From an uncultured Kiritimatiellota bacterium (GTDB taxonomy: Bacteria; Verrucomicrobiota; Kiritimatiellia; RFP12; DVOR01): a stretch of DNA of 64,000 bases. Positions 4,143 to 49,661 of this stretch are shown piece after piece. The DNA is taken from positions 108,645 to 172,644 of the forward strand of contig CALXMT010000002.1 of assembly GCA_944389545.1 (NCBI GenBank), given 5' to 3'. The position numbers and the translations under genes are program-made. The first letter of the stretch is position 1; every line of letters begins with the position of its first letter. Below the pieces are notes generated by a model that had not been told where the DNA came from, ran no database searches, and was given only the letters and a program-made list of their open reading frames with translations.

Positions 4143-5636
4143 TTATTGCACCGGCTCCATGTCGCCGGACATCATGTCGGGGTTGGTTTCGATGCGGTCC
4201 TTGAAACGCGTCGTGGCGCCGTCGAAGTTCAGGCGCACCTCGCCGGTGGCGCCGTTGCGGTTCTTCGACACGTCCACAATGGCCAGGAGACGGTCATCGT
4301 GCTCCGGCACGCGGCTGCTCATGAAGCTGGGCCGCCGCAACAACAAAATCACGTCCGCGTCCTGCTCGATGGCGCCGGAGTCACGCAGGTCGGAGTTCTT
4401 GGGCTTCTCGTCGCCGCCGCGCTGCTCCGGGTTACGCGACAGCTGGGAGAGGACGATGACGGGCACGTTCAGTTCCTTGGCCATCGCCTTGATCTCGCCC
4501 GAAATCTTCGCCACCATCACCTGCTGCCCCTGCTGGGCGAACTCGCGGTAGGAGAGCAATTGCAGGTAGTCGATAACGATGAGTTCCACGGGGTTGCGTT
4601 TATGGGCGTGACGCGCACGGGCACGCAGTTCCATCACGTCCAGACCGCCCTGGTCATCGCAGAGGATCGGCGTCTCCTGGAGTTCCTTCGCGGCGGATTT
4701 CAGGAGCGGCAAGACCACGTCCTTCTTGACGAACTGCCCCTTCTCCACCTCGCGCGCAGAGACCCCCGCGATACCGCAAAGCATACGCGTGGTCAGCTGC
4801 ATTTGCGGCATTTCCAACGAGAAGACCAAGACCGTGCGCTTCTTCACCCTGCCGTCTTCCGAGGGGAAGGGCCGTCCCATGATGTCGCGGCCGCGCGCCA
4901 CGCACTCGGCGATGTTCATTGCCAGCGACGTCTTGCCCATGGAAGGACGCGCCGCCAAAACAATCATTTCGCCCCGGTGCAACCCGCGCAGTTGGTTGTC
5001 CAACGCCTTGAAGCCCGTCGGGATACCGGAGAGTTCGCCGGGGTGCTCCAGTTGACGCGTCAGCATGGAGAGCGTCTCGTCCACCGAGGTTCGCCAATCC
5101 ACACTGGAGCCACTCTTGGTGCGCCCCTCGCCGATGCCCAGGATGGTCTGCTCGGCCATGCCCAGCACGTAGTCCGCGGACTGTGAGGCATCGTAGACAT
5201 TCGCCTCCACCTCGCGCACCGCGCCCAGGATGCAACGGCGCAGATACTGCTCCATCACCAGCTCGGCATAGTAACTCGCGTGCGCGCTGGTCGGGGTCCG
5301 CTCCATCAGCTCCGTGAGCGCCCGCAGACCGCCCACCGCGTCCAAGTCGCCCGTCCCCTTGAGGAAGTTCGACACCGTGATGCCGTCGACCGGCTGCCCC
5401 TTCGAGGCCAACCGCGTGATGGCGGCATAGATGCTGCGATGGGTCGGATCGACAAAAGCCTCCGCCACCAAACCCTTTGTGGAGCAGATGTCCAACACCC
5501 GCACCGGATCCAAGAGAATCGAACCCAACAACCCCTGCTCGGCCTCAATATCCTGCGGCAATTCACGGCGCAACGGCGCCTCCCCCGCCATCTCGGACAG
5601 GGGCATCTGCATCTCCACTCGCTTTTTTCTAGGCAT
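4143..5636 (-). CDS. dnaB: replicative DNA helicase DnaB
   Basis: N-terminal IEAEQGLLGSILLDP, Walker A ARPSMGKTSLAMNIA, and RecA-like C-terminal ...IVIDYLQLL...SQLSR. Confidence 0.9.
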   Translation of the reverse strand: MPRKKRVEMQMPLSEMAGEAPLRRELPQDIEAEQGLLGSILLDPVRVLDICSTKGLVAEAFVDPTHRSIYAAITRLASKGQPVDGITVSNFLKGTGDLDAVGGLRALTELMERTPTSAHASYYAELVMEQYLRRCILGAVREVEANVYDASQSADYVLGMAEQTILGIGEGRTKSGSSVDWRTSVDETLSMLTRQLEHPGELSGIPTGFKALDNQLRGLHRGEMIVLAARPSMGKTSLAMNIAECVARGRDIMGRPFPSEDGRVKKRTVLVFSLEMPQMQLTTRMLCGIAGVSAREVEKGQFVKKDVVLPLLKSAAKELQETPILCDDQGGLDVMELRARARHAHKRNPVELIVIDYLQLLSYREFAQQGQQVMVAKISGEIKAMAKELNVPVIVLSQLSRNPEQRGGDEKPKNSDLRDSGAIEQDADVILLLRRPSFMSSRVPEHDDRLLAIVDVSKNRNGATGEVRLNFDGATTRFKDRIETNPDMMSGDMEPVQ

Positions 5637-5697
5637 TGTCTACTTCTTGGGCACGTCTCGGAAAATCAGCCCTATAGTTTACCAAAACGTCCCCCTC

Positions 5698-6055
5698 CTG
5701 TCCGTTAGTTTTCCGCAAAGCAATAACGCTTGGGAGAATGGGGACCGAATGGGGACCGCAAAGACGCAATAATGGGCGCGAACCGCTTCGGGCGCCATCG
5801 GTCGCTCTGCGGCTTCGCCGCTGACCGCGACCGCCGCCCTCCGTTTCGCGCCTTGAAGTAAGGAAAGTTGGGAGTAGGGTGAAGCCGCTCCATAAAAGTG
5901 AACATCTAAACTCCCTATCATCCCTTTTGAGCGCCCCTTCAGGGGCGCGATAGCGTGGAAATCCCAAGGGCGGCGCAACCAACGGGAGCGATGGAGCCCG
6001 CCGGGTTTCCAAGCCAAACCGTCTTCGGGCAAAACTTTCCTGGACACTCTTCGGT
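5698..6055. mobile_element. MITE-like non-coding repeat element copy 1 (reverse orientation relative to copy at 52462..52795; left TIR degenerate)
   Basis: ~85-90% identical over >300 bp to the reverse complement of 52462..52795. Ends carry ...GGACCGCAAAGACGCAA... and ...TTCCTGGACACTC (TIR-like). Small ORFs on it are artefacts. Confidence 0.6.
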
Positions 6056-6336
6056 CCTATTGCCTAAACAAAATCATACATTCAGTTGTCAAAGAGCAGC
6101 GCGTGAATGCTTGGTGAACGCACCACGCACCTTTGCCAAAGACCGTCATTCGTCCTCTCTAAATCAATGACAATCCTCTTGCCCAACGCAAGATACGCCA
6201 TCTTCCAGACCTGTCATTTGGTAACGAGATTTGAGGCGCACACCCTATCTCTTATCGGTCTAATAGCGTACTGCTCTACAATAGATATGCGCCATTCAAC
6301 CATTGGTGAACGGCGCACTTGCGGATGTGTTTACTG

Positions 6337-7206
6337 TCACAGCGCGGTAAAACAGTGAGACTCTAAGCAAAAGGCGTCAACATCCGATTTGAGGCTCTTG
6401 GCCGAGCAAGCGTTGTCCGTGTACAAGAAGAATGGGAGTGTTCCCTCATCTACCGTTTGCACGGGGCAAAGGTGCAACGCGGAAGCTTGCCGCTCTTTGG
6501 AAGAAGCACCAAGCGCATGGGCATTCGAGTTGGAGGGGTGAAGGTCTTTCTTCCTTCGCAACTCTTTCAGTTGGTCAGCCAAAAACGCTTGTGCGGACCC
6601 ACTCTCCATCTTACCTTCATAGAGGAAGATTTTGCGTGACCGCAATGTTCTCGCCCAGTCGCGGAAAGCTTGGGCCGTAGGCAATGCGCTCGGTTCCGCG
6701 AGCCTACCGAATCCGCGCGTGGCGCGGAGACCAAGCGCACCAACCCAAACGAAGGCTTGAACCGTCTCTTCTACTTGATCCCATAGGTTTGTCGGCACTG
6801 GGCGTACGGCTCGAATCTTGAGCGTGAACGTGCTTCCTGCGCCGATGTAATGTCCCTCTGTTGTACGGTAAACATTCTGCTTGTTGCCGGAGACCCGCGC
6901 GAAATACCCGATATAGCCCATCGGCGTGTCGTTGGGCAATGAGACAGCCCGCTGGTTGTTGACGATGTTGGTGTCTTCCACTCGCACGGCAATTGCCGAA
7001 GCGACGGCCCTAGATTCACCGTGGACACCGCCGAACAACACCTTTTCCTCTTCACGGACATCGCGATTTCCAGCCAAGACGCGGAACCACCAACGCAACG
7101 CTCCGCGGATGGAGGGCGCACGGATTTCAGGTTTGTTCTGGTCTGCCCCTGCAAGGAAGGTCGACGTGATGAAGGTCAGTTTTTTGGTGATTTCCTGTTC
7201 GTTCAT
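6337..7206 (-). CDS. cmr1: type III-B CRISPR RAMP subunit Cmr1
   Basis: 289 aa; KPEIRAPSIRGALRWWFRVLAG (Cmr1 RxxxRGxxRxW motif) and a glycine-rich loop GALGLRATRGFGRL. Last gene of the cmr operon. Confidence 0.7.
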   Translation of the reverse strand: MNEQEITKKLTFITSTFLAGADQNKPEIRAPSIRGALRWWFRVLAGNRDVREEEKVLFGGVHGESRAVASAIAVRVEDTNIVNNQRAVSLPNDTPMGYIGYFARVSGNKQNVYRTTEGHYIGAGSTFTLKIRAVRPVPTNLWDQVEETVQAFVWVGALGLRATRGFGRLAEPSALPTAQAFRDWARTLRSRKIFLYEGKMESGSAQAFLADQLKELRRKKDLHPSNSNAHALGASSKERQASALHLCPVQTVDEGTLPFFLYTDNACSAKSLKSDVDAFCLESHCFTAL

Positions 7207-8531
7207 GCTTGGCCTCCTTGCTTGGCTTTCATGGCCTCACGGATTGCCTTTTGTGCATCGCCGGGGAATCCTTTCACGCCATTGCGAATCTTGGCGTAGA
7301 CTTGCGCAGGAAGCGACCCGGCCTCCGAGAAGAGGGAGAGCATGGCTTCTCGACGTTCCGTGTTCGCCTTCAAGAATCCCTTGGCATCGTTAAGGATGCG
7401 TTTTTCGCTGTTCCAGGAGCGGCGCAGGATATCGACGGCGGATTCCTTAGGTAGGGCATTGTTGCACTTGGCTTTGAACTCGCGTAAGCGTTGGTTAATC
7501 GACTCATCTGCCTTTAAGGTTTCCGCTTCGGCCATCAGCGTTTCAGCCTGGCATTGCAGAGTGTGCGCGGTTTCGGGGGTAGGGGCCTCTTCCAAGAGCA
7601 TATTGACTGCCGTCCGGAGTGCGTCCAGACGGGCTCGGACTTGTTTGGCGGCAAGTACCTTTTCTCGCAACGCCTCGCGCTCTTGCGTGACGTTCTTGAA
7701 CCAACCGTAACCGGCGGCGGTTTTGGCGCCGGCGCCGTTCACGGTGATGGCCTCGATGAGCCACCGCTTGGCATCCGCCATGTTCGTTTCTTTGCAGTTA
7801 CGCAGGGGGACGAGAGGGAAGCAGAAGGTCACACCCGACTGGACAACAGGGAAGGCCTGGACATTGGGGTTCTCATCGTCCGTCGCTTGTGGCTTCTTTT
7901 CACCGTAATAGTCTTTGTGGTGGCAGGTGAGCACGTCGACTTCCAGATTCGCCTTGCCATCCGGGAAAGCACCCAAGAAGGCGACGCACCCGGCGTGATC
8001 TTGAACCTTTTTCCCTTCTTTCTCCCACATGGCCTTCAATTCCGCGTCCAATCCATCTTTGTCGTTGGTGGGATAGCCAAAGACCGTGGCGATGCGTTGG
8101 GCGATGGCCTTTTTCGTCTCGCCTTCTTCAGTCTTATTCCACTCGCACCAGGCTGCGTGGCGGGCGATGCCCTTCACCGCGCTCCCGGGCAGGTAGGGAT
8201 AGCCGAAGTGTGGGTGCAGGCAGATGTTCGCGTTCTCCAAGATGCCGCCGGCCAGGTTCACGGTCAGACGGCTCTGCAACTGTCCCCAGACACATTCAGC
8301 GCCTTTCGGCACGTCGTCCAAAAACGGTGTCTCCCCATACTTTTCCTGACACGCGCAGACCGCCTTCAATTCCTCCTGCTTGTTCCCACCTTCGCCGCCG
8401 ACCGTCACGAACTTCGTCAGGCGCAGCGATGGATTTTCGCATACGCGCTCGACGTCGCGCACGTTTTCCGGTGCACACCACCACGTCTTGGCCTTATCTC
8501 CCATCGCCATCCTCCTTACTGTTCTTTGCAA
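7203..8531 (-). CDS. cmr6: Cmr6 (Cas7-family RAMP) with ~150-aa C-terminal coiled-coil extension
   Basis: PYLPGSAVKGIARHAAW (Cas7 GSxxKG motif) and G-rich loop AKTAAGYGWF. C-terminal LREKVLAAKQVRARLDALRT...KAKQGGQA is extra relative to typical ~300-aa Cmr6. Confidence 0.65.
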   Translation of the reverse strand: MQRTVRRMAMGDKAKTWWCAPENVRDVERVCENPSLRLTKFVTVGGEGGNKQEELKAVCACQEKYGETPFLDDVPKGAECVWGQLQSRLTVNLAGGILENANICLHPHFGYPYLPGSAVKGIARHAAWCEWNKTEEGETKKAIAQRIATVFGYPTNDKDGLDAELKAMWEKEGKKVQDHAGCVAFLGAFPDGKANLEVDVLTCHHKDYYGEKKPQATDDENPNVQAFPVVQSGVTFCFPLVPLRNCKETNMADAKRWLIEAITVNGAGAKTAAGYGWFKNVTQEREALREKVLAAKQVRARLDALRTAVNMLLEEAPTPETAHTLQCQAETLMAEAETLKADESINQRLREFKAKCNNALPKESAVDILRRSWNSEKRILNDAKGFLKANTERREAMLSLFSEAGSLPAQVYAKIRNGVKGFPGDAQKAIREAMKAKQGGQA

Positions 8532-8904
8532 AACGGCGGAAGAAGGTCAGATAGGCCAGCACTTCTGCGGTGGTGACGCGCAACTGCATGGAGTCGGCTT
8601 TGGTCAACTCCTCGAACCACGTTGCCACATCCGTGGCTTTTCGCGCCGTCGCGTCATTGATGGCGGGGTCTTTCAAGTGGCGGAGGACGGCTTCGAAGAC
8701 TGCACGGTGTCCCTTCTTGTTGTCATCCGACAGCGCGAAGGCCATCGCGCCCAACAAGCCATGCATCACCACCATGCCGGGCACCTTCTTGGCGACGTCG
8801 CCGCCATCTTTGGCCTCAAACGTCTGGTCCTTGGACGCGGCGTAGGCGTTGAGCGCGCGGACTTGGTCGAGGCTTCTTTTGACTGCGGAGAGCGAAGCGA
8901 TCAT
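8494..8904 (-). CDS. cmr5: Cmr5 (Cas11 small subunit); start at internal MIASLS
   Basis: ~136 aa, all-helical small protein between cmr4 and cmr6. Its start abuts the cmr4 stop. Confidence 0.6.
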   Translation of the reverse strand: MIASLSAVKRSLDQVRALNAYAASKDQTFEAKDGGDVAKKVPGMVVMHGLLGAMAFALSDDNKKGHRAVFEAVLRHLKDPAINDATARKATDVATWFEELTKADSMQLRVTTAEVLAYLTFFRRFAKNSKEDGDGR

Positions 8905-9707
8905 TGCGCGTCCTCCTTGCAAGTGATGGTGCACCAACCGAGGCCCGTCGTGGCGTCTGCGCCGACTTGGAGCAGGTTATTTTCCTTCGTCAGTTGCTCT
9001 TGCAACTGCGTCAAGAGGGCGGGTTCATCGGCCATCAATTGCCCCACGAAGAGCGTTTCGGAGGGGACGTTCTCCTGCGCGAAGAGCGCACCGTTCGCGA
9101 CGGTACCGGTCGTGTCATCGATACGGTTGTGGTAGGCGATTTCGCAAGCGTTCTGCGCGAAGTGGGGCAGCACCGTGTCCGAGACCACGACCAGGCGGTT
9201 GTCCAAGGAACCCTGCCACAGCGTGTGCCCACAGAGCGGCTTCAAGGCGGCTTTCAGGTTTTCCGGCAAGTCTCCGGTGCGTTTCAGACGATACTCTTCC
9301 AACACCACATCGTTCTCAATGGCGACCAACCCTTCCGGCGCGAGCACGGCGTCTTCGCCCACTGCTGGGCAGTCAATGCCGAGCCGCGCCAAGGTCAGGG
9401 GCGAGGTCAACCACGCGAATCCACCCTTGGCCGAGCGCACGGGGAAGGCTACTAACCGAGCCTCGCCCACCAAAATCTTGCCGCGTCCGTTTTGTTCCCC
9501 AAAGAGCAAGTTTTGCGTCTGGGGATCGGTAAACAGGTCGCGCAACACGCCCTTCAGCGCAGAGCCGGGCACGGTCGGGAAGCCGGTGGCACGCTCGCGC
9601 AGGACGGGCAAGTCCACCACGCCCACAGAACTGCCACATCCCACATGGAGCGGCGTGCGCGTGAACAACGAAAAGGTCAGCGTCTTCATCTCAGTCTCCT
9701 CAATCAA
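8901..9707 (-). CDS. cmr4: Cmr4 (Cas7 backbone subunit)
   Basis: MKTLTFSLFTRTPLHVGCG...FPTVPGSALKGVLRDLF (Cmr4 signature) and G-rich loop GADATTGLGWC. Confidence 0.75.
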   Translation of the reverse strand: MIEETEMKTLTFSLFTRTPLHVGCGSSVGVVDLPVLRERATGFPTVPGSALKGVLRDLFTDPQTQNLLFGEQNGRGKILVGEARLVAFPVRSAKGGFAWLTSPLTLARLGIDCPAVGEDAVLAPEGLVAIENDVVLEEYRLKRTGDLPENLKAALKPLCGHTLWQGSLDNRLVVVSDTVLPHFAQNACEIAYHNRIDDTTGTVANGALFAQENVPSETLFVGQLMADEPALLTQLQEQLTKENNLLQVGADATTGLGWCTITCKEDAQ

Positions 9708-10845
9708 GGTGCAAATAGGAACACACGCCTAGGCCGAAACCCTTTTCGCCCAGGTCGGAACGTTGGCTCAGGTGCAGGACTTCAATCAACTTCGCAGCCT
9801 CGGCCGTGTCGGCGCATTCAAAGACGTAGCAAGCCCCTGCGGGGACGGCCAGTTCTGTGGGCTTGGCCCCATCCAGGGAGTCCCACCCTGAAAAGACCAC
9901 GGGAGTGCCGATGCGCGCGGCGATGAGGTGTGCGGAAGGGAAGGGTTTCAATTCCGCCTTGGCCCGTGCCCGCCAGGCCTTGCGCGATTCACCGGGGTGC
10001 CGCTCCACTTCGTTCATAGGAATCATTACGTGCCCGGCCTCATCGAGCCAGTTCGGATACCATCCCTTCATGAAGAGGGCCGGCGCCAAGAGCGTCCACC
10101 GCACGAACCGCGAGGGCGTTCCCTGCGGCAGAGCCTTCAAGCGCGCATCGAGGCTCGCACCTCGCACCGCGTCAAAGCGCACTGTGCCGCCCTGCCCGCC
10201 GAAACGCACGTCGTGTCCGGCCAACGTCGCGGACTTCTCCTGGCGCACATCGCACAGCATGGAGACACCCGGGGTCAACCGCAACGTCTCCATCCACCAC
10301 TGTCCGCTGAGTGCATTCTGGTCCCGCACCGACGTGTGCTTGGTGTCGTCAAGCGTTGTCCCTACGCGCGGTTCCCTGTGGTATAGTTCCGGGATTTTAG
10401 TCTCCACGCCTGCAACCGTCTCCCCGCGCAGATAACATGCGTATCCTTCGGTCGAAACCCATGCGGGGAGCGACTTCTTGCCTTCGGTGTTGTCCAGGAA
10501 ACCATGCGTCAGCGGCGCGGGCAGGTCTGTTGTCTCCTTTGTGATGGGGATTAGCTTCATGTCCCAGTCCAAAGGCCTTGGTAGGTAGAGCGTTCCCTCG
10601 CGCAGGGGGAAAGGGCCGCGAACCGCCAAGTCGGTCACGCTTCCATAGTGCTGAACCTCCGGTTTATCCGGGTCACCGAGCAACGTGTGGATGACGGCAC
10701 TGAAGAGCAGGTCCGGTCGCGGCCAATTGGCCCCGTGGCCCACCATCCGCAGGTTGGTACTTTGGCGTTTTTGGGTATCCATGGGTCGCGCGTCTCGGAA
10801 AAAGAGCACGTCCCGCGGCGTCAGTTCATAAGAGAGTGCATCCAT
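9700..10845 (-). CDS. cmr3: Cmr3 (Cas5-family subunit)
   Basis: 381 aa; N-terminal LTPRDVLFFRDARPM typical of Cmr3 and C-terminal glycine-rich loop GEKGFGLGVCSYL. Confidence 0.7.
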   Translation of the reverse strand: MDALSYELTPRDVLFFRDARPMDTQKRQSTNLRMVGHGANWPRPDLLFSAVIHTLLGDPDKPEVQHYGSVTDLAVRGPFPLREGTLYLPRPLDWDMKLIPITKETTDLPAPLTHGFLDNTEGKKSLPAWVSTEGYACYLRGETVAGVETKIPELYHREPRVGTTLDDTKHTSVRDQNALSGQWWMETLRLTPGVSMLCDVRQEKSATLAGHDVRFGGQGGTVRFDAVRGASLDARLKALPQGTPSRFVRWTLLAPALFMKGWYPNWLDEAGHVMIPMNEVERHPGESRKAWRARAKAELKPFPSAHLIAARIGTPVVFSGWDSLDGAKPTELAVPAGACYVFECADTAEAAKLIEVLHLSQRSDLGEKGFGLGVCSYLHLD

Positions 10846-12212
10846 TATTTATCCTCCCCCTGGCGCCACAGGAACGCCACACTCAGGAAAAGTCCCAGGA
10901 AGTCCTCCGCACGTGTTTTGCATTCCATCTTTAGGAAGGTTGCCAGCTTCGCCATGTCCAGCTTTCCTTTCATACCGTCCGTTCGCTCGATGGCGAAAGT
11001 CGTCTCCGCCAAGATAAGATCGGCCAAATCAGACGGCAACTCTCCTTTCAGTCCATAGGGCTGCAACAGTGCGGCCAACTTGTAGGGGAAACGCCCTGCC
11101 ACGTCCTTGCCGCATTGCGCGAAGGCATCAAAGAGGTCCAAACCGCAAGCGTCCCACGCTTCTCCATCTTGCTTGTATTTCCATTTGCTTCCCCACCATA
11201 GGATTTCACCTGACCGCTTGTGGATGGCCAGCGCCAACGCATTGCGGCCATAGGCCTCCTTTGCGCGGTGTTCCGCTTCCCGGGCGCGATTCACCAGTTC
11301 TTGCAAGGGCACGCTCTTGTGCCCGATGGCCACCCCCGCCGAGGCCGTCCCGCCGATCTGCGCGGAGAAATCTGCGGCCAACGCTTTCGCGCATGCCACA
11401 GCCAGATGCGCCGGCAACACTGCCAGCACATCGTCCCCGCCCACGTAGATGGATTGGCCTTGATAGTCTTTGATACGAGCTTCCGCCTTCGGGGCGAAGT
11501 TCAACAACAGTTCGCTGAATGCTTGGTGCTCCGCCTCGGTCTTGAAGGCACTCAAGCGCTTCCCCATTGTGTCGCCGTCCATCATGAGGACCGCCACGTA
11601 ATCGTCTTGTTTCACGGGGTCGTCAAAGGGAGCTTCTTCCGCGTGCAATCGCTTGATCAAGTTCATCGCGCCGAAGCCCAGCTTCTTGTCCAACACCGTC
11701 TCTTTGCCAGAGAGGATGTCCTTTGGATACTTGGTCGCCTCTTCCGGCCATGCGTCAAACTCGCGCGTGTTACGCCGTGCGGCCAACAATGCGCCGATGG
11801 TCTTGTAATCCTGACCCATATCGCCGGAGGGCTCCTCCAGGATTGCCCAAGAGGTTTGCGGGAAGGCCTTCACCTGCAGCAGAAAGGTCCCATCATGCGA
11901 CCACTCTGGGTGCACCTTCAATGCGCTTTCCGCCATTTCTCGCAACGCCGTTCGGAGCGCATCCGCCATCGCGCGCGCTGTTTCCGTAGCTGTTTCGCGC
12001 GGCACAAAGGCCAAGACGCGGTTCGGTAGACCAGGCCCCTCTCGTTTTGCCGGGAAGACCTCTTCGGCGCCCTCGGGCAATACCTTGAGCACTGTCTCTG
12101 TCAACTTTGACAACAAATCCGACCCCGCCCACAAATCTTGCGCGGTCTCGGCCTGTGCGATGAATCCCTGCACAGGCCCAAACTGAAAAAGCAACAACGC
12201 CTTGTCCTTCAC
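10845..12212 (-). CDS. cas10: Cas10/Cmr2, minimal form lacking HD domain, with intact GGDD cyclase palm (GTG start)
   Basis: 455 aa; LLLFQFGPVQGFIAQA (Cas10 post-HD motif), AVLMMDGDTMGKRL (palm metal-binding D) and IYVGGDDVLAVLP (GGDD). No H-HD-H-D motifs. Confidence 0.7.
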   Translation of the reverse strand: MKDKALLLFQFGPVQGFIAQAETAQDLWAGSDLLSKLTETVLKVLPEGAEEVFPAKREGPGLPNRVLAFVPRETATETARAMADALRTALREMAESALKVHPEWSHDGTFLLQVKAFPQTSWAILEEPSGDMGQDYKTIGALLAARRNTREFDAWPEEATKYPKDILSGKETVLDKKLGFGAMNLIKRLHAEEAPFDDPVKQDDYVAVLMMDGDTMGKRLSAFKTEAEHQAFSELLLNFAPKAEARIKDYQGQSIYVGGDDVLAVLPAHLAVACAKALAADFSAQIGGTASAGVAIGHKSVPLQELVNRAREAEHRAKEAYGRNALALAIHKRSGEILWWGSKWKYKQDGEAWDACGLDLFDAFAQCGKDVAGRFPYKLAALLQPYGLKGELPSDLADLILAETTFAIERTDGMKGKLDMAKLATFLKMECKTRAEDFLGLFLSVAFLWRQGEDK

Positions 12213-12225
12213 GGCAAGCCTCCTC

Positions 12226-12684
12226 TCAAATCCGTTTCATCCACCTCAGACGCAACACGTGCCACCCTGTGATTGCCGACGGCGCCGCCGCCTGGCCCGG
12301 GGCCGGTCGGCCTCCCCCTGCCACATCCGGCGACAACACATAACATTCCGCGAAGCATTCCCCGTCCAATTCCGGCAATCCCTCCGCGTTCAACCGCAAT
12401 GCCGGGCGCGGCACCCGCGGCTTCAACGTTCCCGCCGACACCCCCAGAAAGGCCTCCGCCGCACCCTGCGTCTCCGCGTGTCCCCAGAACGACCGAACCA
12501 CCGCCCCAGACGCCAACGCCTCCCGCAAGGTCTCCACCCTTATTTCCTCGATCTCCACACGCCACCCCCGCACCAACGTCAACGGGAAGGTATTTCCAAT
12601 CAACAACGTCCCACTCACGCCTTCGCCTCCCACTTTCCTGGCCTCCAGTTCCGGATGGCCTGGACGACATAATCGTTTGGGCAT
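12226..12684 (-). CDS. hypothetical protein (152 aa) between card1 and cas10; coding status uncertain
   Basis: ATG-initiated ORF in a locally GC-rich 400-bp gap. Overlaps the card1 3' end by ~70 nt and has no recognisable motif. Several alternative frames are also open. Confidence 0.3.
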   Translation of the reverse strand: MPKRLCRPGHPELEARKVGGEGVSGTLLIGNTFPLTLVRGWRVEIEEIRVETLREALASGAVVRSFWGHAETQGAAEAFLGVSAGTLKPRVPRPALRLNAEGLPELDGECFAECYVLSPDVAGGGRPAPGQAAAPSAITGWHVLRLRWMKRI

Positions 12685-13811
12685 GGCATCGGTAACTCTA
12701 GCAACATCAAATTACCGGCATCTTCGATTCGGGTCAATAGGTTTTGATAATCGGTCTCTACGTTTCCTTTGGTGTGCCCCAAGTTCTTGGAGGATGTCAC
12801 CAAGATTCCGCGTCCAAATGTACCACCATACTCATCAACAATATCACTGAATCGCTGAATTTGCTCGGAACTCACATACCCAGACTTACACTCTACAAGG
12901 TAAAGGCAGAATCCATCCGTGAATGAAACGTCAAATTCTTGCCTAGGCACACTTGTATCCTCAAAGGAGATACTTGCACCCCGTTGAAAATCATAACATC
13001 CTGGCAACCGTTTCACTTGACAGAGTACGTATGTCTCCAACCAAAGCCCTGTCACAAAACGGCAGGTCTCGATATCCCCTTTTGTCTGGCGCACGTTACT
13101 CAACAATCTCACACACCGCTCCGTTGCGGCACGGTCACGTGTTTTGTCCAAGAAATGTTTGGCTAAAGCGTCCAAATCTCCAGATAATACAGACTTAGCA
13201 TATTTTTGCATATCGCCTAGATGGTCGCTCATCTTACCGATATAACCACGGAATCCCCATCGATGTGCGCAAAGGGCACCTGCCAATTCCTCTTCTTCTT
13301 GAGAAACACCCCACTCGCCTGGGACGAAGATATCGGAAGAGCAGAGGCGCACGAATTGTTCTACGGTGGAGAATCCGCGTCTCAGATGCACTTCGCGGTC
13401 TCCACCCACATCAAGTACCCTGCGCGACTGTGTGTCTACATAAAAACACGATAATCCCGTCCAAGCATTAACTAAAGACAATGCCATCAGCTTGGTTCCG
13501 CCCGTGACGTTCGCGGCCACGGATTGCCCCTTATACTCCTCGTGTAGAGCAACAAAATCTTCTCGTAGACGCCGTTGGTTATACGAATCCACCAACTTAA
13601 TCGCTATCGGCATTTCGGCAGTGGCAAACACTGACACTAATCGTTTCGCGACCACCTCTGTCTTTTCTGTTGCCAATAAGATATGCGTTTTGGCCGGAAC
13701 ATTCAGAATGGCGAATGCCACCGGTAATTCCTGTTCGCCAATCAAATGCAATACGACATCAAACACAGACAGATTCTCTCCAAGCTTACTCATCGATCGC
13801 TCCTTGCTCAT
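12615..13811 (-). CDS. can2: CARF-domain + PD-(D/E)xK nuclease, Card1/Can2-like cyclic-oligoadenylate-activated effector
   Basis: ~398 aa; N-terminal Rossmann-like CARF with VTGGTKLMALSLVN. C-terminal EFDVSFTDGFCLYLVECKSG supplies the D...ExK catalytic triad. First gene of the cas operon next to the array. Confidence 0.65.
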   Translation of the reverse strand: MSKERSMSKLGENLSVFDVVLHLIGEQELPVAFAILNVPAKTHILLATEKTEVVAKRLVSVFATAEMPIAIKLVDSYNQRRLREDFVALHEEYKGQSVAANVTGGTKLMALSLVNAWTGLSCFYVDTQSRRVLDVGGDREVHLRRGFSTVEQFVRLCSSDIFVPGEWGVSQEEEELAGALCAHRWGFRGYIGKMSDHLGDMQKYAKSVLSGDLDALAKHFLDKTRDRAATERCVRLLSNVRQTKGDIETCRFVTGLWLETYVLCQVKRLPGCYDFQRGASISFEDTSVPRQEFDVSFTDGFCLYLVECKSGYVSSEQIQRFSDIVDEYGGTFGRGILVTSSKNLGHTKGNVETDYQNLLTRIEDAGNLMLLELPMPCPNDYVVQAIRNWRPGKWEAKA

Positions 13812-13847
13812 CAAACATCGTTAATCCTACCCCAAACTCCCAAAAAA

Positions 13848-16394
13848 GTCAACCATCCTCGCCTTTCGGTTGAAGGATGGTTGCGAGTCGTACGGGAAGT
13901 AGGACGACCCCGATGCCCTGTCGCAACGGGCTCTTGGCTGAGGGATGGTTGCGAGCTAAGTCATTGGTACAAGGAAGTCGAGTTGTCGCAACCGCCTTTC
14001 GGCTGAGGGATGGTTGCGAGGGCACGGCTCCCCAAGGAACCTACGTTCTTCAAGGTCGCAACCGCCTTTCGGCTGAAGGATGGTTGTGAGGGAGGGCAAG
14101 CTCTGCGCTCGACTCTCCATCTACGTCGCAACCGCCTTTCGGCTGAAGGATGGTTGTGAGACCATGCCAGAAAGGTATGGAGAGCTCGCCACAAGTCGCA
14201 ACCGCCTTTCGGCTGAAGGATGGTTGTGAGCTTAGTCGAGAAGACTAAGAAATTTTGGAAGGAAGTCGCAACCGCCTTTCGGCTGAAGGATGGTTGTGAG
14301 ATGGTCTCACGGCCTCAACCCGCAGCCCTGCAAAGTCGCAACCGCCTTTCGGCTGAAGGATGGTTGTGAGTCATCATCCACAACGGCTGCCTCACCCGCG
14401 CCGAGTCGCAACCGCCTTTCGGCTGAAGGATGGTTGTGAGTTACATCCAATGGATATGGATTTGATGAGGCTGTGTCGCAACCGCCTTTCGGCTGAAGGA
14501 TGGTTGTGAGACAAGGTCCAAAGAACGATTCATAAGGTCCATGTGTCGCAACCGCCTTTCGGCTGAAGGATGGTTGTGAGTTAAAGGTGTGGACCCCAGC
14601 TCCCTCTCGGAGTCTGTCGCAACCGCCTTTCGGCTGAAGGATGGTTGTGAGCCTATGGCTTTGACGAAAACGCCATCTTCCACATGTCGCAACCGCCTTT
14701 CGGCTGAAGGATGGTTGTGAGTTAAAGGTGTGGACCCCAGCTCCCTCTCGGAGTCTGTCGCAACCGCCTTTCGGCTGAAGGATGGTTGTGAGCCTATGGC
14801 TTTGACGAAAACGCCATCTTCCACATGTCGCAACCGCCTTTCGGCTGAAGGATGGTTGTGAGACTGATGCAGATTGAACTCGCCGCCCTGATGGAGTCGC
14901 AACCGCCTTTCGGCTGAAGGATGGTTGTGAGATGGGTGCCACCAAACCGCTTTCGACTTCTTTGAGTCGCAACCGCCTTTCGGCTGAAGGATGGTTGTGA
15001 GTGTGCGGCTATCCCGTGTTTATCTGTCAGCTGACGTCGCAACCGCCTTTCGGCTGAAGGATGGTTGTGAGCCAACAGAACCCGTTTCATAGATGAGAGC
15101 TCCAGTCGCAACCGCCTTTCGGCTGAAGGATGGTTGTGAGTTCTTGGCCTGGTCGCGTTTGTCGGAACGGATGTGTCGCAACCGCCTTTCGGCTGAAGGA
15201 TGGTTGTGAGTGCGGGGGCCTTGAGCGTCGCCGAGCTTGTCTGTGTCGCAACCGCCTTTCGGCTGAAGGATGGTTGTGAGAGCTCAACGCCCTCCTCAAC
15301 GCGCGCGCCGAGGAGTCGCAACCGCCTTTCGGCTGAAGGATGGTTGTGAGCACGGAGCGCCGGAGGCGCCCAAAAATCGCAGATGTCGCAACCGCCTTTC
15401 GGCTGAAGGATGGTTGTGAGGCCGAAAAGAAGCCCGAGCCCGCCGCCAAGCCTTGTCGCAACCGCCTTTCGGCTGAAGGATGGTTGTGAGACGTCAAGCC
15501 AGTTCGTCGTCGCGTTCTCCTGCGTGTCGCAACCGCCTTTCGGCTGAAGGATGGTTGTGAGTCGGAGGATGGCACCCTCCAGTTGCGCAATCTGGGTCGC
15601 AACCGCCTTTCGGCTGAAGGATGGTTGTGAGGTCACGGAAGAGACCGAGACGCTCTACGAGAGCGTCGCAACCGCCTTTCGGCTGAAGGATGGTTGTGAG
15701 TTGGCGACACCGTCCCCGTCTCCGCCACCGAGACGTCGCAACCGCCTTTCGGCTGAAGGATGGTTGTGAGTGGCCGGCGTGACCGCCAACGACGCCTTGG
15801 TCCGGTCGCAACCGCCTTTCGGCTGAAGGATGGTTGTGAGTCGTCTCCAATGCAGTTCAGTGTCGTGGCTCAAGTCGCAACCGCCTTTCGGCTGAAGGAT
15901 GGTTGTGAGCCGTCCAGAGGCGCGTCGTCCGGCCCTGGTCTGTCGCAACCGCCTTTCGGCTGAAGGATGGTTGTGAGCGGAAAAATCCGCGGCCTCGGCT
16001 CCACCGACGCGTCGCAACCGCCTTTCGGCTGAAGGATGGTTGTGAGTTTCCCCATCGGGCCTCGCCACGATGGGCACCAGGTCGCAACCGCCTTTCGGCT
16101 GAAGGATGGTTGTGAGTCCCGCTCGACGTGCTCATGCTTTGGTTTTCCGAGTCGCAACCGCCTTTCGGCTGAAGGATGGTTGTGAGGGGAATGCCGCATG
16201 ATGCCCTATGACGTTTGCGCGTCGCAACCGCCTTTCGGCTGAAGGATGGTTGTGAGTTGGAGTTAATGGAGACCACTCCGGTGGACATGGTCGCAACCGC
16301 CTTTCGGCTGAAGGATGGTTGTGAGCGCCAAGGCGCAGAAGCTCGCCGAGGAGGCGGGGTCGCAACCGCCTTTCGGCTGAAGGATGGTTGTGAG
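13848..16394 (-). CRISPR. CRISPR array, 37 repeats of 36 bp (GTCGCAACCGCCTTTCGGCTGAAGGATGGTTGTGAG), 36 spacers of 29-37 bp; leader at 16.4-kb end, degenerate repeats at 13.85-kb end
   Basis: Direct repeats every 69-72 bp. The three leftmost repeats are mutated (trailer end) and an AT-richer leader lies right of 16394. Inferred transcription is toward lower coordinates, co-directional with the cas genes. Confidence 0.95.
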
Positions 16395-16631: not shown

Positions 16632-16768
16632 GGCGGACCACTATAGGGTCTCGGTGTGGACCCCTATAAGGGTTGACCGCGGACCCCTATAAGGGTTGGC
16701 CGCGGACCACTATAGGGTCTCATCTGCGACCACTATAGGGGTCGGGGCGGACCCTTATAGGGTCTGAA
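16632..16768. repeat. iteron cluster A: six tandem ~22-bp units with near-palindromic core GACCACTATAGGGTC / GGACCCCTATAAGGGTTG, preceded by AGGGGTGTTGG
   Basis: Read directly from the sequence; cognate cluster at 47262..47400. Confidence 0.8.
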
Positions 16769-16855: not shown

Positions 16856-16985
16856 ACCAAGCCGCTAAATTTCTAAACTTTTCTAGAGCGTCCTGCGTGC
16901 GGTAGCACGCCATTAATCTGCTCAAAATCTGCGAAAGCTGCGTTTTTCGGAGATTCGGGGTGCAAATGCATGACGGGTGAAGGCG

Positions 16986-17031
16986 GAACCAAACTTCTAA
17001 ACTTCCAAACTTCTAAACTTCTAAACTTCCA
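16986..17031. repeat. AAACTTCY octamer tandem repeat
   Basis: aacttctaaacttccaaacttctaaacttctaaacttcc; related copies at 26245-26275, 33476-33510 and 52600-52630. Confidence 0.7.
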
Positions 17032-17047
17032 TTTGCGGGTGCAAAAA

Positions 17048-17092
17048 AAAGGCCCCCGGGGGGCCGGGGGCTTTTTGGGGAGTGAGGGGTGG
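17048..17092 (-). terminator. Rho-independent terminator of glgP (GC hairpin GGCCCCCGGGGGGCCGGGGGC flanked by A/T runs, bidirectional)
   Basis: Perfect GC stem directly after the glgP stop codon, with an A8 run on one side and a T5 run on the other. Confidence 0.7.
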
Positions 17093-17095
17093 GCC

Positions 17096-19600
17096 TTACT
17101 TGACCTGGAAGGAGGGGAGGTGCCAGATGTCTTCGGCGTATTCGCGGATGGTGCGGTCGCTGGAGAACTTGCCGGCGGAGGCGACGTTCATCAGGGAGGC
17201 TTTGTTCCAGGCGGTCTGGTCGCGGTAGAGGGCTTCGACGCGGTCTTGGGCCTTGATGTAGTCGGGCAGGTCTTTGAGGAGCATGTAGTAGTCGTTGTAG
17301 TCCAGGAGGTTCTGGAGGAGGGGCTCGAAGATTCCGGGGGCCATGAGGGAGAAGACGTTGCGGCGGATCATGTCGAGCGCGCGCTTGATCTCGGGGTTGC
17401 TCTCGTAGATGGCCTTGGAGTTGTAGGTGGGGCGGAGTTTGGCGACTTCTTCGGTTTTGAGGCCGAAGATGACGATGTTGTCGTCGCCGACTTCCTGGGC
17501 GATTTCGACGTTTGCGCCGTCGAGGGTGCCGAGGGTGATGGCGCCGTTGAGCATGAGTTTCATGTTGCCGGTGCCGGAGGCCTCGGTGCCGGCGAGGGAG
17601 ATTTGCTCGGAGACGTCGGCGGCGGGGATGATTTTCTCGGCGAGGGAGACGCGGTAGTCGGGGAGGAAGGCGACGGCGATGCGGCCCTTGACGAGGGGGT
17701 GGGAGTTGACGACGCTGGCGACGCCGTGGATGAGGCGGATGATGAGCTTGGCGACCCAGTATCCGGGGGCGGCTTTGGCGCCGAAGACGAAGACGCGGGG
17801 GTAGACGTCGAGGTCGGGCTTTTCAATCAGGCGATTGAAGAGGATGATGATGTAGAGGACGAGGAGGAGCTGGCGCTTGTACTCGTGGAGGCGCTTGACC
17901 TGGACATCGAAGATGGCGTCGGGGGAAACCTGGAAGCCGAGGGTGTTGAAGATGGTGTTGGCGAGGATTTCCTTGTTGGCGCGTTTGATTTCGGCGAAGC
18001 GCTTGAGGAAGGCTTTGTCGTTGACCTTGGCTTTGAGCTTGGAGAGCTGGCTGAGGTCGGTGACCCAGCCGTCGCCGATGGTCTCGGTGATGAGGGCGGC
18101 GAGGCGGGGGTTGGCCTTGAGGAGCCAGCGGCGCTGGGTGATGCCGTTGGTCTTGTTGGAGAAGTGGGTGGGCATGATCTCATAGAAGTCCTTGAAGATG
18201 GTCTTCTTGAGGATCTCGGTGTGGAGTGCGGCGACGCCGTTGACGGCGGAGGTGCCGACGAGGCAGAGGTTGGCCATGCGGACGAATTTATCGCCGCTTT
18301 CGTCGATGAGGCTCATGCGGGCGAGGCGGGCGACGTCGCCGGGGAAGAGGGTGGCGACCTGCTGGAGGAAGCGTGCGTTGATCTCGTAGATGATCTGCAT
18401 GTGGCGGGGGAGGACGCGCTCCATGAGGGGGACGGGCCACTTTTCGAGGGCTTCGGGGAGGACGGTGTGGTTGGTGTAGCCGGTGCAGGCGCGGACGTAG
18501 GTCCAGGCGTCGTCCCAGGTGAGGCCTTCGACGTCCACGAGGATGCGCATGAGCTCGGGGATGACGAGGGTGGGGTGGGTGTCGTTGAGCTGGATGAAGA
18601 CGTACTTGGGGAGGTGGCGCCATTCGTGGCCTTCCTCGCGGAAGCGGCGGAGGATGTCGTGGACGGAGGCGGCGACGAAGAGGTATTGCTGGCGGAGGCG
18701 GAGCTCTTTGCCGGCGGTGGTGGAGTCGTTGGGGTAGAGGACTTTGGTGAGGTTCTCGGCGAGGACTTTGCTTTCGACGGCTTCGACGTAGTCGCCGCGG
18801 TTGAATTCGTCGAGGGAGAATTCGTTGGTGGCTTTGGCGCTCCAGAGGCGGAGGGTGGAGACGGTTTTGCCTTGGTAGCCGACGATGGGGAGGTCGTAGG
18901 GGACGGCCTGGACCTGTTGCGCGGGGACCCAGACCCATTCGTCGCGGCCGGTGCGGCCGGTGTAGTGCTCGACGTGGCCGCCGAAGCCGATGAGGCAGGC
19001 GTATTCGGGGCGCTGGATTTCCCAGGGGTAGCCGTATTTCAGCCAGTTGTCGGGCTCTTCGCGCTGTTCGCCGTTGACGATGCGCTGGCGGAAGATGCCG
19101 TAGTCGTAGCGCAGGCCGTAGCCGGTGGCGGGGAGGTTGAGGGTGGCGAGGGAATCCATGAAGCAGGCGGCGAGGCGGCCGAGGCCACCGTTGCCGAGGC
19201 CGGCGTCCATCTCGTAGTCGCGGAGGCGGTTCCAGTCCAGGCCGAGGGAGTCCATGGCTTCGCGGCACTGCTGCTCGAGGCCGAGGTTGATGACGTTGTT
19301 GCCGAGGAGGCGGCCGATAAGGAACTCGAGGGAGAGGTAGTAGACGCGGCGGACCTTGGCGGCGCGGTAGGCGTCTTGGGTGGCCATCCAGCGGTCGACG
19401 ATGCGGTCGCGCACGGCATAGGCGAGGGCTTTGTAGCAATCGCGTTCGGTGGCTCGGTCGCCGCTCTTGGCGAGGGAGAAACGCATGTTCCAGAGGAAGT
19501 CCTGGGCGAGGCCCTCGGCGGTGAACTCAGCGGAGGGGTGGTTGCCGGGCAGGACGACCTTTTCGGTGGTTTTGTCCTTGGTCTTGGTGGACGTGCTCAT
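17096..19600 (-). CDS. glgP: glycogen/maltodextrin phosphorylase
   Basis: 834 aa; EFLIGRLLGNN, NGGLGRLAACFMDSLATL and the pyridoxal site EASGTGNMKLMLNGA. Confidence 0.95.
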   Translation of the reverse strand: MSTSTKTKDKTTEKVVLPGNHPSAEFTAEGLAQDFLWNMRFSLAKSGDRATERDCYKALAYAVRDRIVDRWMATQDAYRAAKVRRVYYLSLEFLIGRLLGNNVINLGLEQQCREAMDSLGLDWNRLRDYEMDAGLGNGGLGRLAACFMDSLATLNLPATGYGLRYDYGIFRQRIVNGEQREEPDNWLKYGYPWEIQRPEYACLIGFGGHVEHYTGRTGRDEWVWVPAQQVQAVPYDLPIVGYQGKTVSTLRLWSAKATNEFSLDEFNRGDYVEAVESKVLAENLTKVLYPNDSTTAGKELRLRQQYLFVAASVHDILRRFREEGHEWRHLPKYVFIQLNDTHPTLVIPELMRILVDVEGLTWDDAWTYVRACTGYTNHTVLPEALEKWPVPLMERVLPRHMQIIYEINARFLQQVATLFPGDVARLARMSLIDESGDKFVRMANLCLVGTSAVNGVAALHTEILKKTIFKDFYEIMPTHFSNKTNGITQRRWLLKANPRLAALITETIGDGWVTDLSQLSKLKAKVNDKAFLKRFAEIKRANKEILANTIFNTLGFQVSPDAIFDVQVKRLHEYKRQLLLVLYIIILFNRLIEKPDLDVYPRVFVFGAKAAPGYWVAKLIIRLIHGVASVVNSHPLVKGRIAVAFLPDYRVSLAEKIIPAADVSEQISLAGTEASGTGNMKLMLNGAITLGTLDGANVEIAQEVGDDNIVIFGLKTEEVAKLRPTYNSKAIYESNPEIKRALDMIRRNVFSLMAPGIFEPLLQNLLDYNDYYMLLKDLPDYIKAQDRVEALYRDQTAWNKASLMNVASAGKFSSDRTIREYAEDIWHLPSFQVK

Positions 19601-19629
19601 GGTGAGTCTCCTTGGGGGGATGAAGGGGG

Positions 19630-20004
19630 TTAGCGGGCGGACTTGGCGTTGCGGGCCTCGTTGCCGCGGGATTTGCGGCCCATGCCGGGTTTGCCGTTGC
19701 GGGCTTCGTTGACGCGGAGTTCGCGGCCCATGACGGTTTTCTTGTTGAGGGCCTTGATGGCCTTTTCGGCCTCGACGCGATAGACCATCTCGACGAAACC
19801 GAAGCCTTTGCTCTTGTTGTTGAAGCGGTTGGTGATGACACGGGCGTCGCGGACGGTGCCGTATTTGGCGAAGAGCTTTTCGAGCTGTTCGTCGGTCATG
19901 TCATAGTTCAGGTTGCCGGCGAAAATCTCGATGCGTTCCTGGGGGCCGGTGGGGGCCTTCTTGCGGATGCCGAAGAGGGCGAGCAAGGGGGAGAAGATGC
20001 TCAT
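19630..20004 (-). CDS. RRM-type RNA-binding protein
   Basis: IFAGNLNYDMT (RNP2), KGFGFVEM (RNP1) and a C-terminal RG-rich tail. Confidence 0.8.
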   Translation of the reverse strand: MSIFSPLLALFGIRKKAPTGPQERIEIFAGNLNYDMTDEQLEKLFAKYGTVRDARVITNRFNNKSKGFGFVEMVYRVEAEKAIKALNKKTVMGRELRVNEARNGKPGMGRKSRGNEARNAKSAR

Positions 20005-48184: not shown

Positions 48185-48512
48185 TAGATGCCGATAAAGT
48201 GTAAACCCGCAAAGCGACCGGTGTTACTCCATCCGGCGTCGCGTGTACTGGTGTCTTCGCGGAAAGACTTCCTCGAATGCTCTTGTGCTTGACGGGGTGG
48301 TGCGGGATGATATAAACTAACCACATCAGTACGAAGGGACTCGTAAATGGCGTTCACTGCAATGTGTTTGAAGCTTGGCGTTGTGGCGATGCTCACGGCG
48401 CAGGGCAACGCCGTGCGGAGGGCGTTTGTGTGGGATTTCACGAAGCCGGTTGCCACACTGCCCTTTTCGTTGAGATAGGTGCAGTGGGTGAAGTCAACGT
48501 CACGACTGTTGA

Positions 48513-49661
48513 TTGGTGTCACTGATGAAGAAGTCGCAATCACGGAGGACGCATCGAGGTAAAGTGGCCTCGTTGTTGCTTCGTGTCGTGCTTGTCATCT
48601 TTGCTTTGTGTGCAACGATAACGCTCTATCTTGTACATGACGAGACGATGCGTGAACGCCGCAATGCACCCCAGCGGGAAGTCGAGGTGCACGAATTGTT
48701 GCAGGTTCGTGAGGGAGGTGTTTTTCCACCACGGGTACAGGACCAACCTTGTCTGCGGACAAGTGATGGTGAGATTGTGCATTGGGAGGCTTCATTGGGA
48801 GAGTTGGCGGAGTTTTGCCGCCAGGGATTGCCCTTTAGGATGAACGTGTATGAGATGTATGGAGGGCTGTATTATTATTCTTCTTATGCAGCCAGAGGGT
48901 GGTTGATTTTCTCGATGTCCTTGTTTCTTTTCTCTTTACACATTCTGTTTTGGCCTGTCAAACGGTCGAAAGTGGAACCCGTCGCTTGTATATCCAAGCG
49001 GGGAGCTTCCATTGGCATGGCCGTTACGGACAAGATAACGTTTGACCTGTCTCAACACGAGCGTCGTCGCCGTATTGTGTTCCAAGTAGTGATTCAGGGT
49101 GCCTTTGCCGTCCTCTTCGTCGGGTGGATGACGTATGCATGGGGATGGTCTTGGTTATTGTTGGCGGTAGCGCTTCCGGTTTTACTGAGCACGGCGCTTG
49201 TTTGTTGGCCAGACGCTCTCGTCCGTTTCATAGGTGGGGCGTTACTCCTATGCGTTCCCTTTTTGGCAGAGGCTTTCGGACACGGTTTGTATTGGCGGGA
49301 AACGACGCGTATTGAAGCAATTCCGCGATATGTGCGCTACGACATGAGCCATTCTGCCGACAAAAAGCATGGGGCGCCTGAGGAGGTTTACGAAGTGCTC
49401 TTCAGCTATGATTGGGCGGGAAGAGAACGTTATGGGTTTATACGCCTTCGCTCAAATCAAGCCGCAGAATGTGCTTTGATCCGTCAGTTGAGAGGGGGTC
49501 ACCTTCAATTGTTGCGTGATCAGTCGCCTGAGGGTCGCTTTTTTGCCTTTGACGCGGCTTGGGCCATCAGCCAACTTGTCAGTGGGGCGGGCGCGCTCTT
49601 TTGCTTCTTGTGCGGAGGTGCCATGCTCTTGCTGGGGCAGAAGAAGCGGAGGACCGAATGA
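48513..49661 (+). CDS. hypothetical polytopic membrane protein (low-GC island)
   Basis: 382 aa with at least 5 TM segments and no recognisable motif. Local GC is ~42-50% versus ~67% background. Confidence 0.45.
   Translation: MVSLMKKSQSRRTHRGKVASLLLRVVLVIFALCATITLYLVHDETMRERRNAPQREVEVHELLQVREGGVFPPRVQDQPCLRTSDGEIVHWEASLGELAEFCRQGLPFRMNVYEMYGGLYYYSSYAARGWLIFSMSLFLFSLHILFWPVKRSKVEPVACISKRGASIGMAVTDKITFDLSQHERRRRIVFQVVIQGAFAVLFVGWMTYAWGWSWLLLAVALPVLLSTALVCWPDALVRFIGGALLLCVPFLAEAFGHGLYWRETTRIEAIPRYVRYDMSHSADKKHGAPEEVYEVLFSYDWAGRERYGFIRLRSNQAAECALIRQLRGGHLQLLRDQSPEGRFFAFDAAWAISQLVSGAGALFCFLCGGAMLLLGQKKRRTE

Follow-up and report, generated by a model that had tools for sequence, protein, structure and literature searches.

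A divergent Can2/Card1-type CARF nuclease gene at the head of a type III-B CRISPR operon

The 64,000-nucleotide (nt) stretch of contig CALXMT010000002.1 analysed here (positions 108,645 to 172,644; hereafter the window) carries a type III-B CRISPR locus whose first operon gene, a can2/card1-like gene on the minus strand, very probably encodes a functional CRISPR ancillary nuclease of the Can2/Card1 type, likely to act as a homodimer of subunits that each join a CARF domain to a PD-(D/E)xK nuclease domain. Judged by its sequence and predicted fold, the 392-amino acid (aa) protein is a divergent member of this family (DUF1887; the CARF4 class of CARF-PD-ExK proteins). The operon it heads comprises a cas10 with an intact GGDD motif and cmr3-4-5-6-1, accompanied by a 37-repeat array, and a small open reading frame (ORF2) related to Crn2/AcrIII-1 ring nucleases lies between the can2-like gene and cas10. 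Dependence of the protein on cyclic tetra-adenylate (cA4) and its nuclease activity are predicted from homology to characterised enzymes. The gene adds a divergent member, probably from the Planctomycetes-Verrucomicrobia-Chlamydiae (PVC) group, to a well-characterised family, and the locus confirms the standard architecture of a type III-B complex, cA4 signalling and a nuclease. Comparison with a sister locus, referred to as L003, further supports an exchange of the can2 gene body within an otherwise conserved operon.

A divergent member of the Can2/Card1 family

A single long open reading frame (ORF) spans the interval on the minus strand (12615..13814, with the stop codon at 12615-12617), and three in-frame starts are possible: a TTG at 13814, an ATG at 13811, which is where the sequence-only reading had placed the end of the ORF, and an ATG at 13793. 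The last of these is the better-supported start, because an AAGGAG Shine-Dalgarno sequence stands 6 nt ahead of it, because translation from it yields 392 aa identical to the database protein P0001, and because in L003 an in-frame TAA follows the upstream ATG.

Both domains were recovered by the Pfam Card1 models above their curated cut-offs. PF23400 (CARF_Card1) covered residues 13-126 of 392 (20-133 of the 399-aa ORF) with 30.5 bits (gathering threshold 24.6), and PF09002 (Card1_endonuc) covered positions 249-342 of the 399-aa ORF with 36 bits (threshold 26.4). These hidden Markov model (HMM) searches for CARF and DUF1887/Card1 are the check that the sequence-only reading had proposed, and they bear out the N-terminal CARF domain with a GGTK loop and the C-terminal restriction-endonuclease-like domain with a D...ExK signature that it had described from the letters, with T97-K101, EFDVSFTDG and LVECK all in place. 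Its preference for Card1/Can2 over the HEPN proteins Csm6 and Csx1 is likewise shared by the Pfam, PADLOC, PDB sequence and fold searches. In PADLOC, the model CARF4--CARF_PDDEXK matched at 1.8e-43, and a search of the PDB sequences with the single protein sequence returned Can2 (7BDV) at 6e-9.

We call the protein divergent because few homologues were retrieved, 24 among 5.8 billion sequences, most of them at low identity (73%, 41% and 39%, then no more than 31%). The nearest named relatives stem from metagenome-assembled genomes of Kiritimatiellaeota and other PVC-group bacteria. When a family profile (A1) built from the 24 homologues was searched against the PDB sequences, Can2 of Sulfobacillus thermosulfidooxidans (SthCan2) was found at 7.6e-56 and VC1899 at 7e-41, followed by Card1, with weaker matches to another Can2 (8BAO, 1.6e-28), Cdn1 (4.6e-23) and Can1 (2.6e-18). 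Together with the Pfam and PADLOC scores, this puts the similarity well outside what chance would yield. The AlphaFold 2 (AF2) monomer model (predicted local distance difference test score, pLDDT, 89.3; predicted template modelling score, pTM, 0.88) led to the same protein: Foldseek ranked Can2 7BDV first (E 2.8e-21, template modelling score, TM, 0.68/0.77), then VC1899, Card1 and other Can2 structures.

Two other classes of CARF protein were considered and rejected. For Csm6/Csx1 (CARF-HEPN), no HEPN family appeared in the Pfam or NCBIfam scans and the C-terminal half is a PD-ExK domain; Csm6 structures cover the CARF part of the model alone (TM 0.26), and those PADLOC models labelled 'Csx1' that match over the full length are CARF-plus-nuclease models (description 'ARF+Nuclease'). 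Can1 (TTHB155-type) is a protein of ~640 aa with two CARF domains, a nuclease-like and a nuclease domain, whereas the protein here has 392 aa, one CARF and one nuclease domain, and matches Can1 6SCE only in part (over the CARF domain in the profile search, TMt 0.36).

SthCan2 (7BDV; Zhu et al. 2021, PMC7969007) is thus the best match by both profile and fold, and the resemblance extends to a single CARF domain joined to a PD-(D/E)xK domain within ~370-390 aa, to the ExD and ExK motifs, to the cA4 contacts T42, K99 and Y118 (SthCan2 numbering), to a type III-B association and to a crn2-type neighbour, as described for some can2 loci. The two proteins differ in that their identity is ~18% (structural alignment), in that Ser19 is Gly in the window protein, in a clade-specific insertion that the latter carries around residues 338-350, and in their hosts, since that of the window is probably a PVC-group bacterium and not a Firmicute or Proteobacterium. 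The type III nuclease Card1 of Treponema succinifaciens (6WXW/6XL1; Rostol et al. 2021), which cA4 activates, likewise belongs to DUF1887 and is composed of PF23400 and PF09002. Its match to the window protein is the weaker one (1.2e-36 with the family profile, ~14% identity). Card1 has been described mainly as a nuclease of single-stranded DNA and single-stranded RNA (ssRNA) that is associated with type III-A systems. VC1899 of Vibrio cholerae (1XMX), the founding member of DUF1887, aligns over its full length, including the C-terminal Trp region.

The residues on which catalysis and ligand binding would depend are largely retained. Invariant in the 24 homologues are T97-G-G-T-K101, G249-x-W-x-E253, E286-x-D288 and E301-C-K303 (T97-K101 in NVTGGTKLM, nt 13491-13505; E286/D288 in EFDVSFTDG, nt 12930-12938; E301/K303 in LVECK, nt 12885-12893). 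In the alignments, E286/D288 fall on E276/D278 of SthCan2, D288 also falls on the catalytic D294 of Card1 (D294N in entry 6XL1), and E301/K303 fall on the ECK motif, that is, on TsuCan2 E302/K304; Zhu et al. (2021, PMC7969007) found no activity in SthCan2 E276A/D278A or in TsuCan2 E302A/K304A. The cA4 contacts common to Can1 and Can2 are S19, T42, K99 and Y118 in SthCan2 numbering, and VC1899, which is inactive in vitro, has lost all four (PMC7969007). In the window protein they correspond to G19, T42, K101 and Y118, and S121 to T121, with G19 standing in place of Ser throughout the closest clade. That three of the four contacts are kept fits a ligand-responsive enzyme, with cA4 as the presumed ligand, rather than a VC1899-like relic, while the change of Ser19 to Gly would leave some room for altered ligand handling.

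Several observations nevertheless weigh against a functional Can2/Card1-type nuclease. Structural alignments give low identities to the characterised members (14-18%), the single-sequence Pfam scores lie modestly above threshold, and of the four conserved cA4 contacts, Ser19 has given way to Gly. Inactive family members do occur, as VC1899 shows, and the related nuclease Cdn1 responds to cA3 as well as cA4, so that the ligand is not certain. In the surrounding locus, Cas10 is unusually short (455 aa), its predicted cyclase competence being read from the GGDD motif, and, despite the 37-repeat array, no cas6, cas1 or cas2 came to light in the portions of the window examined for CRISPR genes (~1-39 kb and 46-53 kb). 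Processing of CRISPR RNA (crRNA) and adaptation are probably supplied in trans; the related loci L008 and L006 carry cas1, or cas1 fused to reverse transcriptase (RT-cas1), and cas2.

Against this background, two other accounts of the protein have to be considered. It might be a Can2-like nuclease that is tuned to another or an additional messenger (cA3, cA6, or both cA3 and cA4 like Cdn1) or that has another substrate spectrum, as could be argued from the detectable relationship to Cdn1 (8Z4I/9U49), from the Gly that replaces Ser19 in the whole closest clade and from the scarcity of close relatives. We regard this as highly improbable, given that the match to SthCan2 is far stronger than that to Cdn1 (7.6e-56 vs 4.6e-23), that most of the cA4 contacts are conserved and that the linked candidate ring nuclease is of the Crn2/AcrIII-1 family, whose members are described as specific for cA4. 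More improbable still is a degenerate, 'cast-adrift' DUF1887 protein that, like VC1899, keeps the fold without binding cA4 or cutting: although VC1899 is an inactive protein and the second-best PDB match by profile and fold, and although many relatives of 26% identity, in Pseudomonas and similar genomes, do not lie beside cas genes, VC1899 has no cA4 contacts and no CRISPR link, whereas the window protein retains T42, K101, Y118 and the whole catalytic set, and its gene heads an intact type III-B operon with an array and is coupled to a ring-nuclease homologue.

ORF2, a candidate Crn2-type ring nuclease

The sequence-only reading had named the Can2-like protein the sole ancillary effector. It is indeed the sole recognisable effector activated by cyclic oligoadenylate (cOA) in the parts of the window examined, but it is not the only ancillary gene: ORF2, a ring-nuclease homologue of the Crn2/AcrIII-1 type, is a second one. 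ORF2 starts with a GTG at 12633 or 12618, overlapping the can2 stop codon (GTGA), and is translationally coupled to the can2-like gene. It has no match in Pfam (at E values up to 10, PF08960 included), NCBIfam or PADLOC, and its family profile retrieved from the PDB sequences a spurious HpaC match only (E 0.5). The link to DUF1874 therefore rests on a fold search and on profile-profile comparison.

With the AF2 model of ORF2 (pLDDT 87.6), Foldseek ranks 1-16 in the PDB were all taken by DUF1874 entries (2J85, 6SCF, 2J6B, 2X4I, 8Y7G and 8Y7F), which include STIV B116, AcrIII-1 (6SCF), AFV3-109, SIRV1 ORF114a and the Crn2 domain of Csx1-Crn2; the matches to stand-alone DUF1874 proteins (ranks 1-11 and 14) reached TM values of 0.49-0.66. 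Comparison of the ORF2 family with four DUF1874 PDB sequences by hhalign gave a probability of 93.6% (E 2.2e-7) and paired ORF2 H47 with the catalytic H47 of AcrIII-1, the residue altered in PDB entry 6SCF (H47A), as well as R71 with R66 and R104 with R85. H47 belongs to the motif SFWGH and is at least 90% conserved, and GNTF, SFWGH and RP are invariant in the 22 close homologues. By model and profile, ORF2 is best described as a remote DUF1874 homologue and not as a member at the level of the PF08960 model.

It resembles Crn2/AcrIII-1 (DUF1874, PF08960; 6SCF, 2J85, 8Y7G) in its size of ~130 aa, its fold, the position of the His of its GH motif and of its two Arg residues, and its location beside can2 within a type III locus. 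It is unlike these proteins in having no direct sequence match in Pfam, NCBIfam, PADLOC or the PDB, in its identity of ~12-17%, in forming a family of its own that is usually encoded immediately upstream of cas10, and in the occurrence within this family of fusions to CARF-like, PD-ExK and transmembrane modules. It has been reported that crn2 often adjoins can2 and that Can2 itself does not act as a ring nuclease (Zhu et al., PMC7969007). The can2-crn2 pairing as such is already published, and what is new is how divergent the Crn2 branch of ORF2 is, to the point that the Pfam DUF1874 model fails to detect this partner of the Can2-like protein.

Two other ring-nuclease families were rejected for ORF2. 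Crn4 (Unk01) was considered since Crn4b is associated with Can2, but its N-terminal T-x-H and C-terminal Arg motif is absent, no Crn4 appeared in the PDB profile search, and there are no Crn4 entries among the 50 fold matches listed, out of 109 with E values of at most 10. Csx16 was set aside for want of a PF09652 or TIGR02620 match.

If the gene encodes a functional Can2/Card1-type nuclease, the locus may operate as follows. A Cmr complex without an HD domain would bind target RNA matching one of the ~36 spacers, whereupon the GGDD cyclase of Cas10 would make a cyclic oligoadenylate, most likely cA4. The messenger would bind across the CARF dimer via the TGGTK loop, T42 and Y118, and would thereby open or align the two nuclease domains, which would then nick or degrade DNA and/or ssRNA in a non-specific, metal-dependent manner by means of E253, E286/D288 and E301/K303. 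Since Cas10 lacks an HD domain, the locus would have no activity directed at DNA other than the can2-like nuclease. Finally, the co-translated ORF2 protein, with its conserved catalytic His, might degrade cA4 and so turn the nuclease off and reset the system. With a ring-nuclease homologue encoded right beside the effector, the signalling module would hence consist of an effector and its off-switch.

The ORF2 family is broad. When clustered at 50% identity, the members found by an exhaustive profile search fell into at least 176 clusters. PF08960 (STIV_B116-like) was matched by 19 of 58 diverse members at E values of at most 1 (best 3.6e-6). Homologues stand immediately upstream of cas10 in type III-B loci (the window, L003, L008, L009 and L011) and in a III-D-like locus (L006), whereas in a few other genomes they adjoin card1-like genes rather than cas10. 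Overall, the genome scan placed ORF2-like genes beside card1-like ones in five independent genomes (L011, L014, L036, L038 and L084), and on two metagenome contigs (L008 and L009) both occur within one type III-B locus. Several homologues are fused to other modules. P0109 carries its ORF2 domain ahead of a Card1-type PD-ExK nuclease, at the N-terminal place usually held by CARF, and the catalytic His of the domain is changed to Thr, which suggests that it may take over the sensing role of CARF. In three proteins of 480-620 aa (P0059, P0060 and P0143) it is C-terminal to CARF-like modules with an FNITSGN loop, and in P0076 it follows a transmembrane module; Pfam and PDB scans of the N-terminal parts of these fusions were mostly empty, with no Pfam match.

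A more far-reaching view would see in the ORF2 family a second, non-CARF module for cOA binding that serves as ring nuclease and as sensor, and in ORF2 itself a Cas10-linked regulator of an exchangeable Can2 cassette. It was raised because of the cas10-adjacent position, the P0109 fusion, the fusions to CARF-like and transmembrane modules and the Gly in place of Ser in the Can2 clade, and we consider it speculative and rather unlikely. As for the more modest assignment of ORF2 as a ring-nuclease candidate, a 2025 survey found Crn2 in 7 loci only (PMC12409355), and ORF2 suggests that ring nucleases of the Crn2 type are under-detected by current HMMs; the breadth of its family and the fusions could alter the estimated number of cA4-signalling loci with an off-switch.

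Probable exchange of the can2-like gene at a fixed slot

The can2-like gene stands out from its operon by composition. Its GC content was measured at 48.3%, in line with the ~48% noted in the sequence-only reading, and its GC content at third codon positions (GC3) at 49.9%, compared with 55-62% and 62-78%, respectively, for the six cmr genes, 64.9% GC for ORF2 and 62.0% for the whole window. The step in GC3 coincides with the borders of the gene.

The suggestion of modular acquisition that had been drawn from this low GC content gains support from L003, where the body of can2 alone is exchanged. Between L003 and the window, the encoded proteins are 95% identical for ORF2, 89% for Cas10 and 84-89% for Cmr3, Cmr4 and Cmr6, and 41% for the Card1-like protein. 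At the DNA level, the two loci are 85.5% identical from 12660 down to 6196 and 72% identical over 13955-13689, while over the intervening ~1 kb of the can2 gene body no similarity is detectable; homology remains at the two ends of the gene, over ~105 nt at its start and ~46 nt at its end. The L003 allele is intermediate in composition (52% GC). In L009, the can2 slot is occupied by a CARF protein of the Cas_NE0113 family, and both L008 and L009 carry additional card1-like genes after cmr1.

These comparisons support the replacement of a cassette, in the slot between the array and ORF2-cas10, by what appears to have been recombination within conserved gene ends. It could instead be proposed that the low GC content and the 41% identity reflect rapid diversification in situ, for example in escape from phage inhibitors, and not horizontal replacement. 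The homology of both can2 ends to L003 could be accommodated by such a process, and an ancillary effector is a plausible target of anti-CRISPR proteins. We judge it quite unlikely all the same, seeing that the flanking genes are 84-95% identical at the protein level while the can2 body retains no detectable DNA similarity, that GC3 falls from 71-78% to 50% exactly at the can2 borders, and that related loci hold Cas_NE0113 in the slot or card1-like genes elsewhere in the locus, a pattern for which point mutation alone is not a plausible source. With cassette replacement as the preferred explanation, the two near-identical cmr operons with non-homologous can2 bodies provide a clean natural example of effector exchange at a fixed slot, with the exchange breakpoints inside the ends of the can2 gene.

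The type III-B locus and the remainder of the window

Read on the minus strand, the locus runs from the array through the can2-like gene, ORF2, cas10 and cmr3-4-5-6-1 to a hairpin and dnaB (Table 1). The cmr gene calls were also taken from an identical contig (L001). On the far side of the array lie genes for a glycogen phosphorylase, an RNA recognition motif (RRM) protein, two sigma-70 factors and metK.

Table 1. Features of the type III-B locus in the window
Feature	Coordinates	Strand	Evidence
CRISPR array, 35 repeats of 36 nt (≤3 mismatches) plus 2 degenerate repeats	13852..16394	-	
Promoter-like TTGACT-17-TAGGAT (sigma-70-like) in the last degenerate repeat, upstream of can2	13824..13852	-	Conserved in L003
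can2/card1-like gene, 392 aa	12615..13793	-	ORF; Shine-Dalgarno sequence and ATG; identity to P0001; PF23400/PF09002; PDB profile and fold matches
CARF domain, residues ~10-135, including the TGGTK loop at 13491-13505	13389..13766	-	PF23400; alignment to SthCan2
PD-(D/E)xK nuclease domain, residues ~240-342	12768..13076	-	PF09002; invariant columns; aligned known catalytic residues
ORF2, divergent Crn2/AcrIII-1-like (DUF1874 fold) candidate ring nuclease, 130-135 aa	12226..12633	-	Fold and profile-profile comparison
Compact cas10/cmr2, 455 aa, GGDD intact, no HD domain	10845..12212	-	Pfam Cmr2_N and Cas10-Cmr2_palm2; TIGR02577 9.4e-41
cmr3	9700-10845	-	Pfam and NCBIfam
cmr4	8901-9707	-	Pfam and NCBIfam
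cmr5	8494-8937	-	Pfam and NCBIfam
cmr6	7203-8531	-	Pfam and NCBIfam
cmr1	6337-7206	-	Pfam and NCBIfam
Terminator-like hairpin directly after cmr1	6287..6318	-	

On the minus strand, GTTGCGAC forms the end of the repeat and resembles a 5′ tag, as is usual in type III systems. The leader of the array is placed near 16400 because the degenerate repeats sit at the can2 end. As to the promoter-like site listed in Table 1, to which the last degenerate repeat contributes part of the sequence, the number of such sites in the region is not above chance. The palindromic 23-nt unit GCGGACCACTATAGGGTCTCGCC is repeated in tandem (~5.8 copies) at 16633-16765, about 240 nt beyond the leader-proximal repeat. 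These copies could be a regulatory element or one similar to repetitive extragenic palindromic (REP) sequences, and L003 has comparable units upstream of its array (positions 1-90).

The closest PDB sequence match of Cas10 is the Cmr2 of 9ARW (612 aa), compared with which Cas10 is ~150 aa shorter, without the stretch between the N-terminal region and Palm2. Its relatives in sister loci comprise 454-494 aa.

The hairpin after cmr1 is the likely end of the operon. It lies in a ~700-bp gap of lower GC content between cmr1 and dnaB (5637-6336), which also holds two overlapping ORFs that could not be annotated (5629-6012 and 5679-6047; no family matches in Pfam or PADLOC). In related loci, card1-like or cas1 genes occupy this place, and tblastn with the L008 and L009 proteins found no remnant of either in the gap. 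Rfam at gathering thresholds yielded nothing in the whole window. In the examined parts of the window, no further CRISPR gene was detected; Pfam scans at 28-39 kb and 46-53 kb, taken with the annotation of the neighbourhood, gave only housekeeping genes and four ORFs that could not be annotated.

Four plus-strand ORFs (382, 160, 405 and 156 aa; no Pfam or PADLOC match) lie in a low-GC island at ~48500-52500, with 46-55% GC between flanks of 62-65%, which could be a foreign or defence island. Lastly, the plus-strand ORF at 16970-19633 (887 aa) was dismissed as a compositional artefact opposite the glycogen phosphorylase gene (17096-19600, minus strand), a look-up of its product having come back empty; it illustrates the spurious long antisense ORFs that arise in high-GC sequence.

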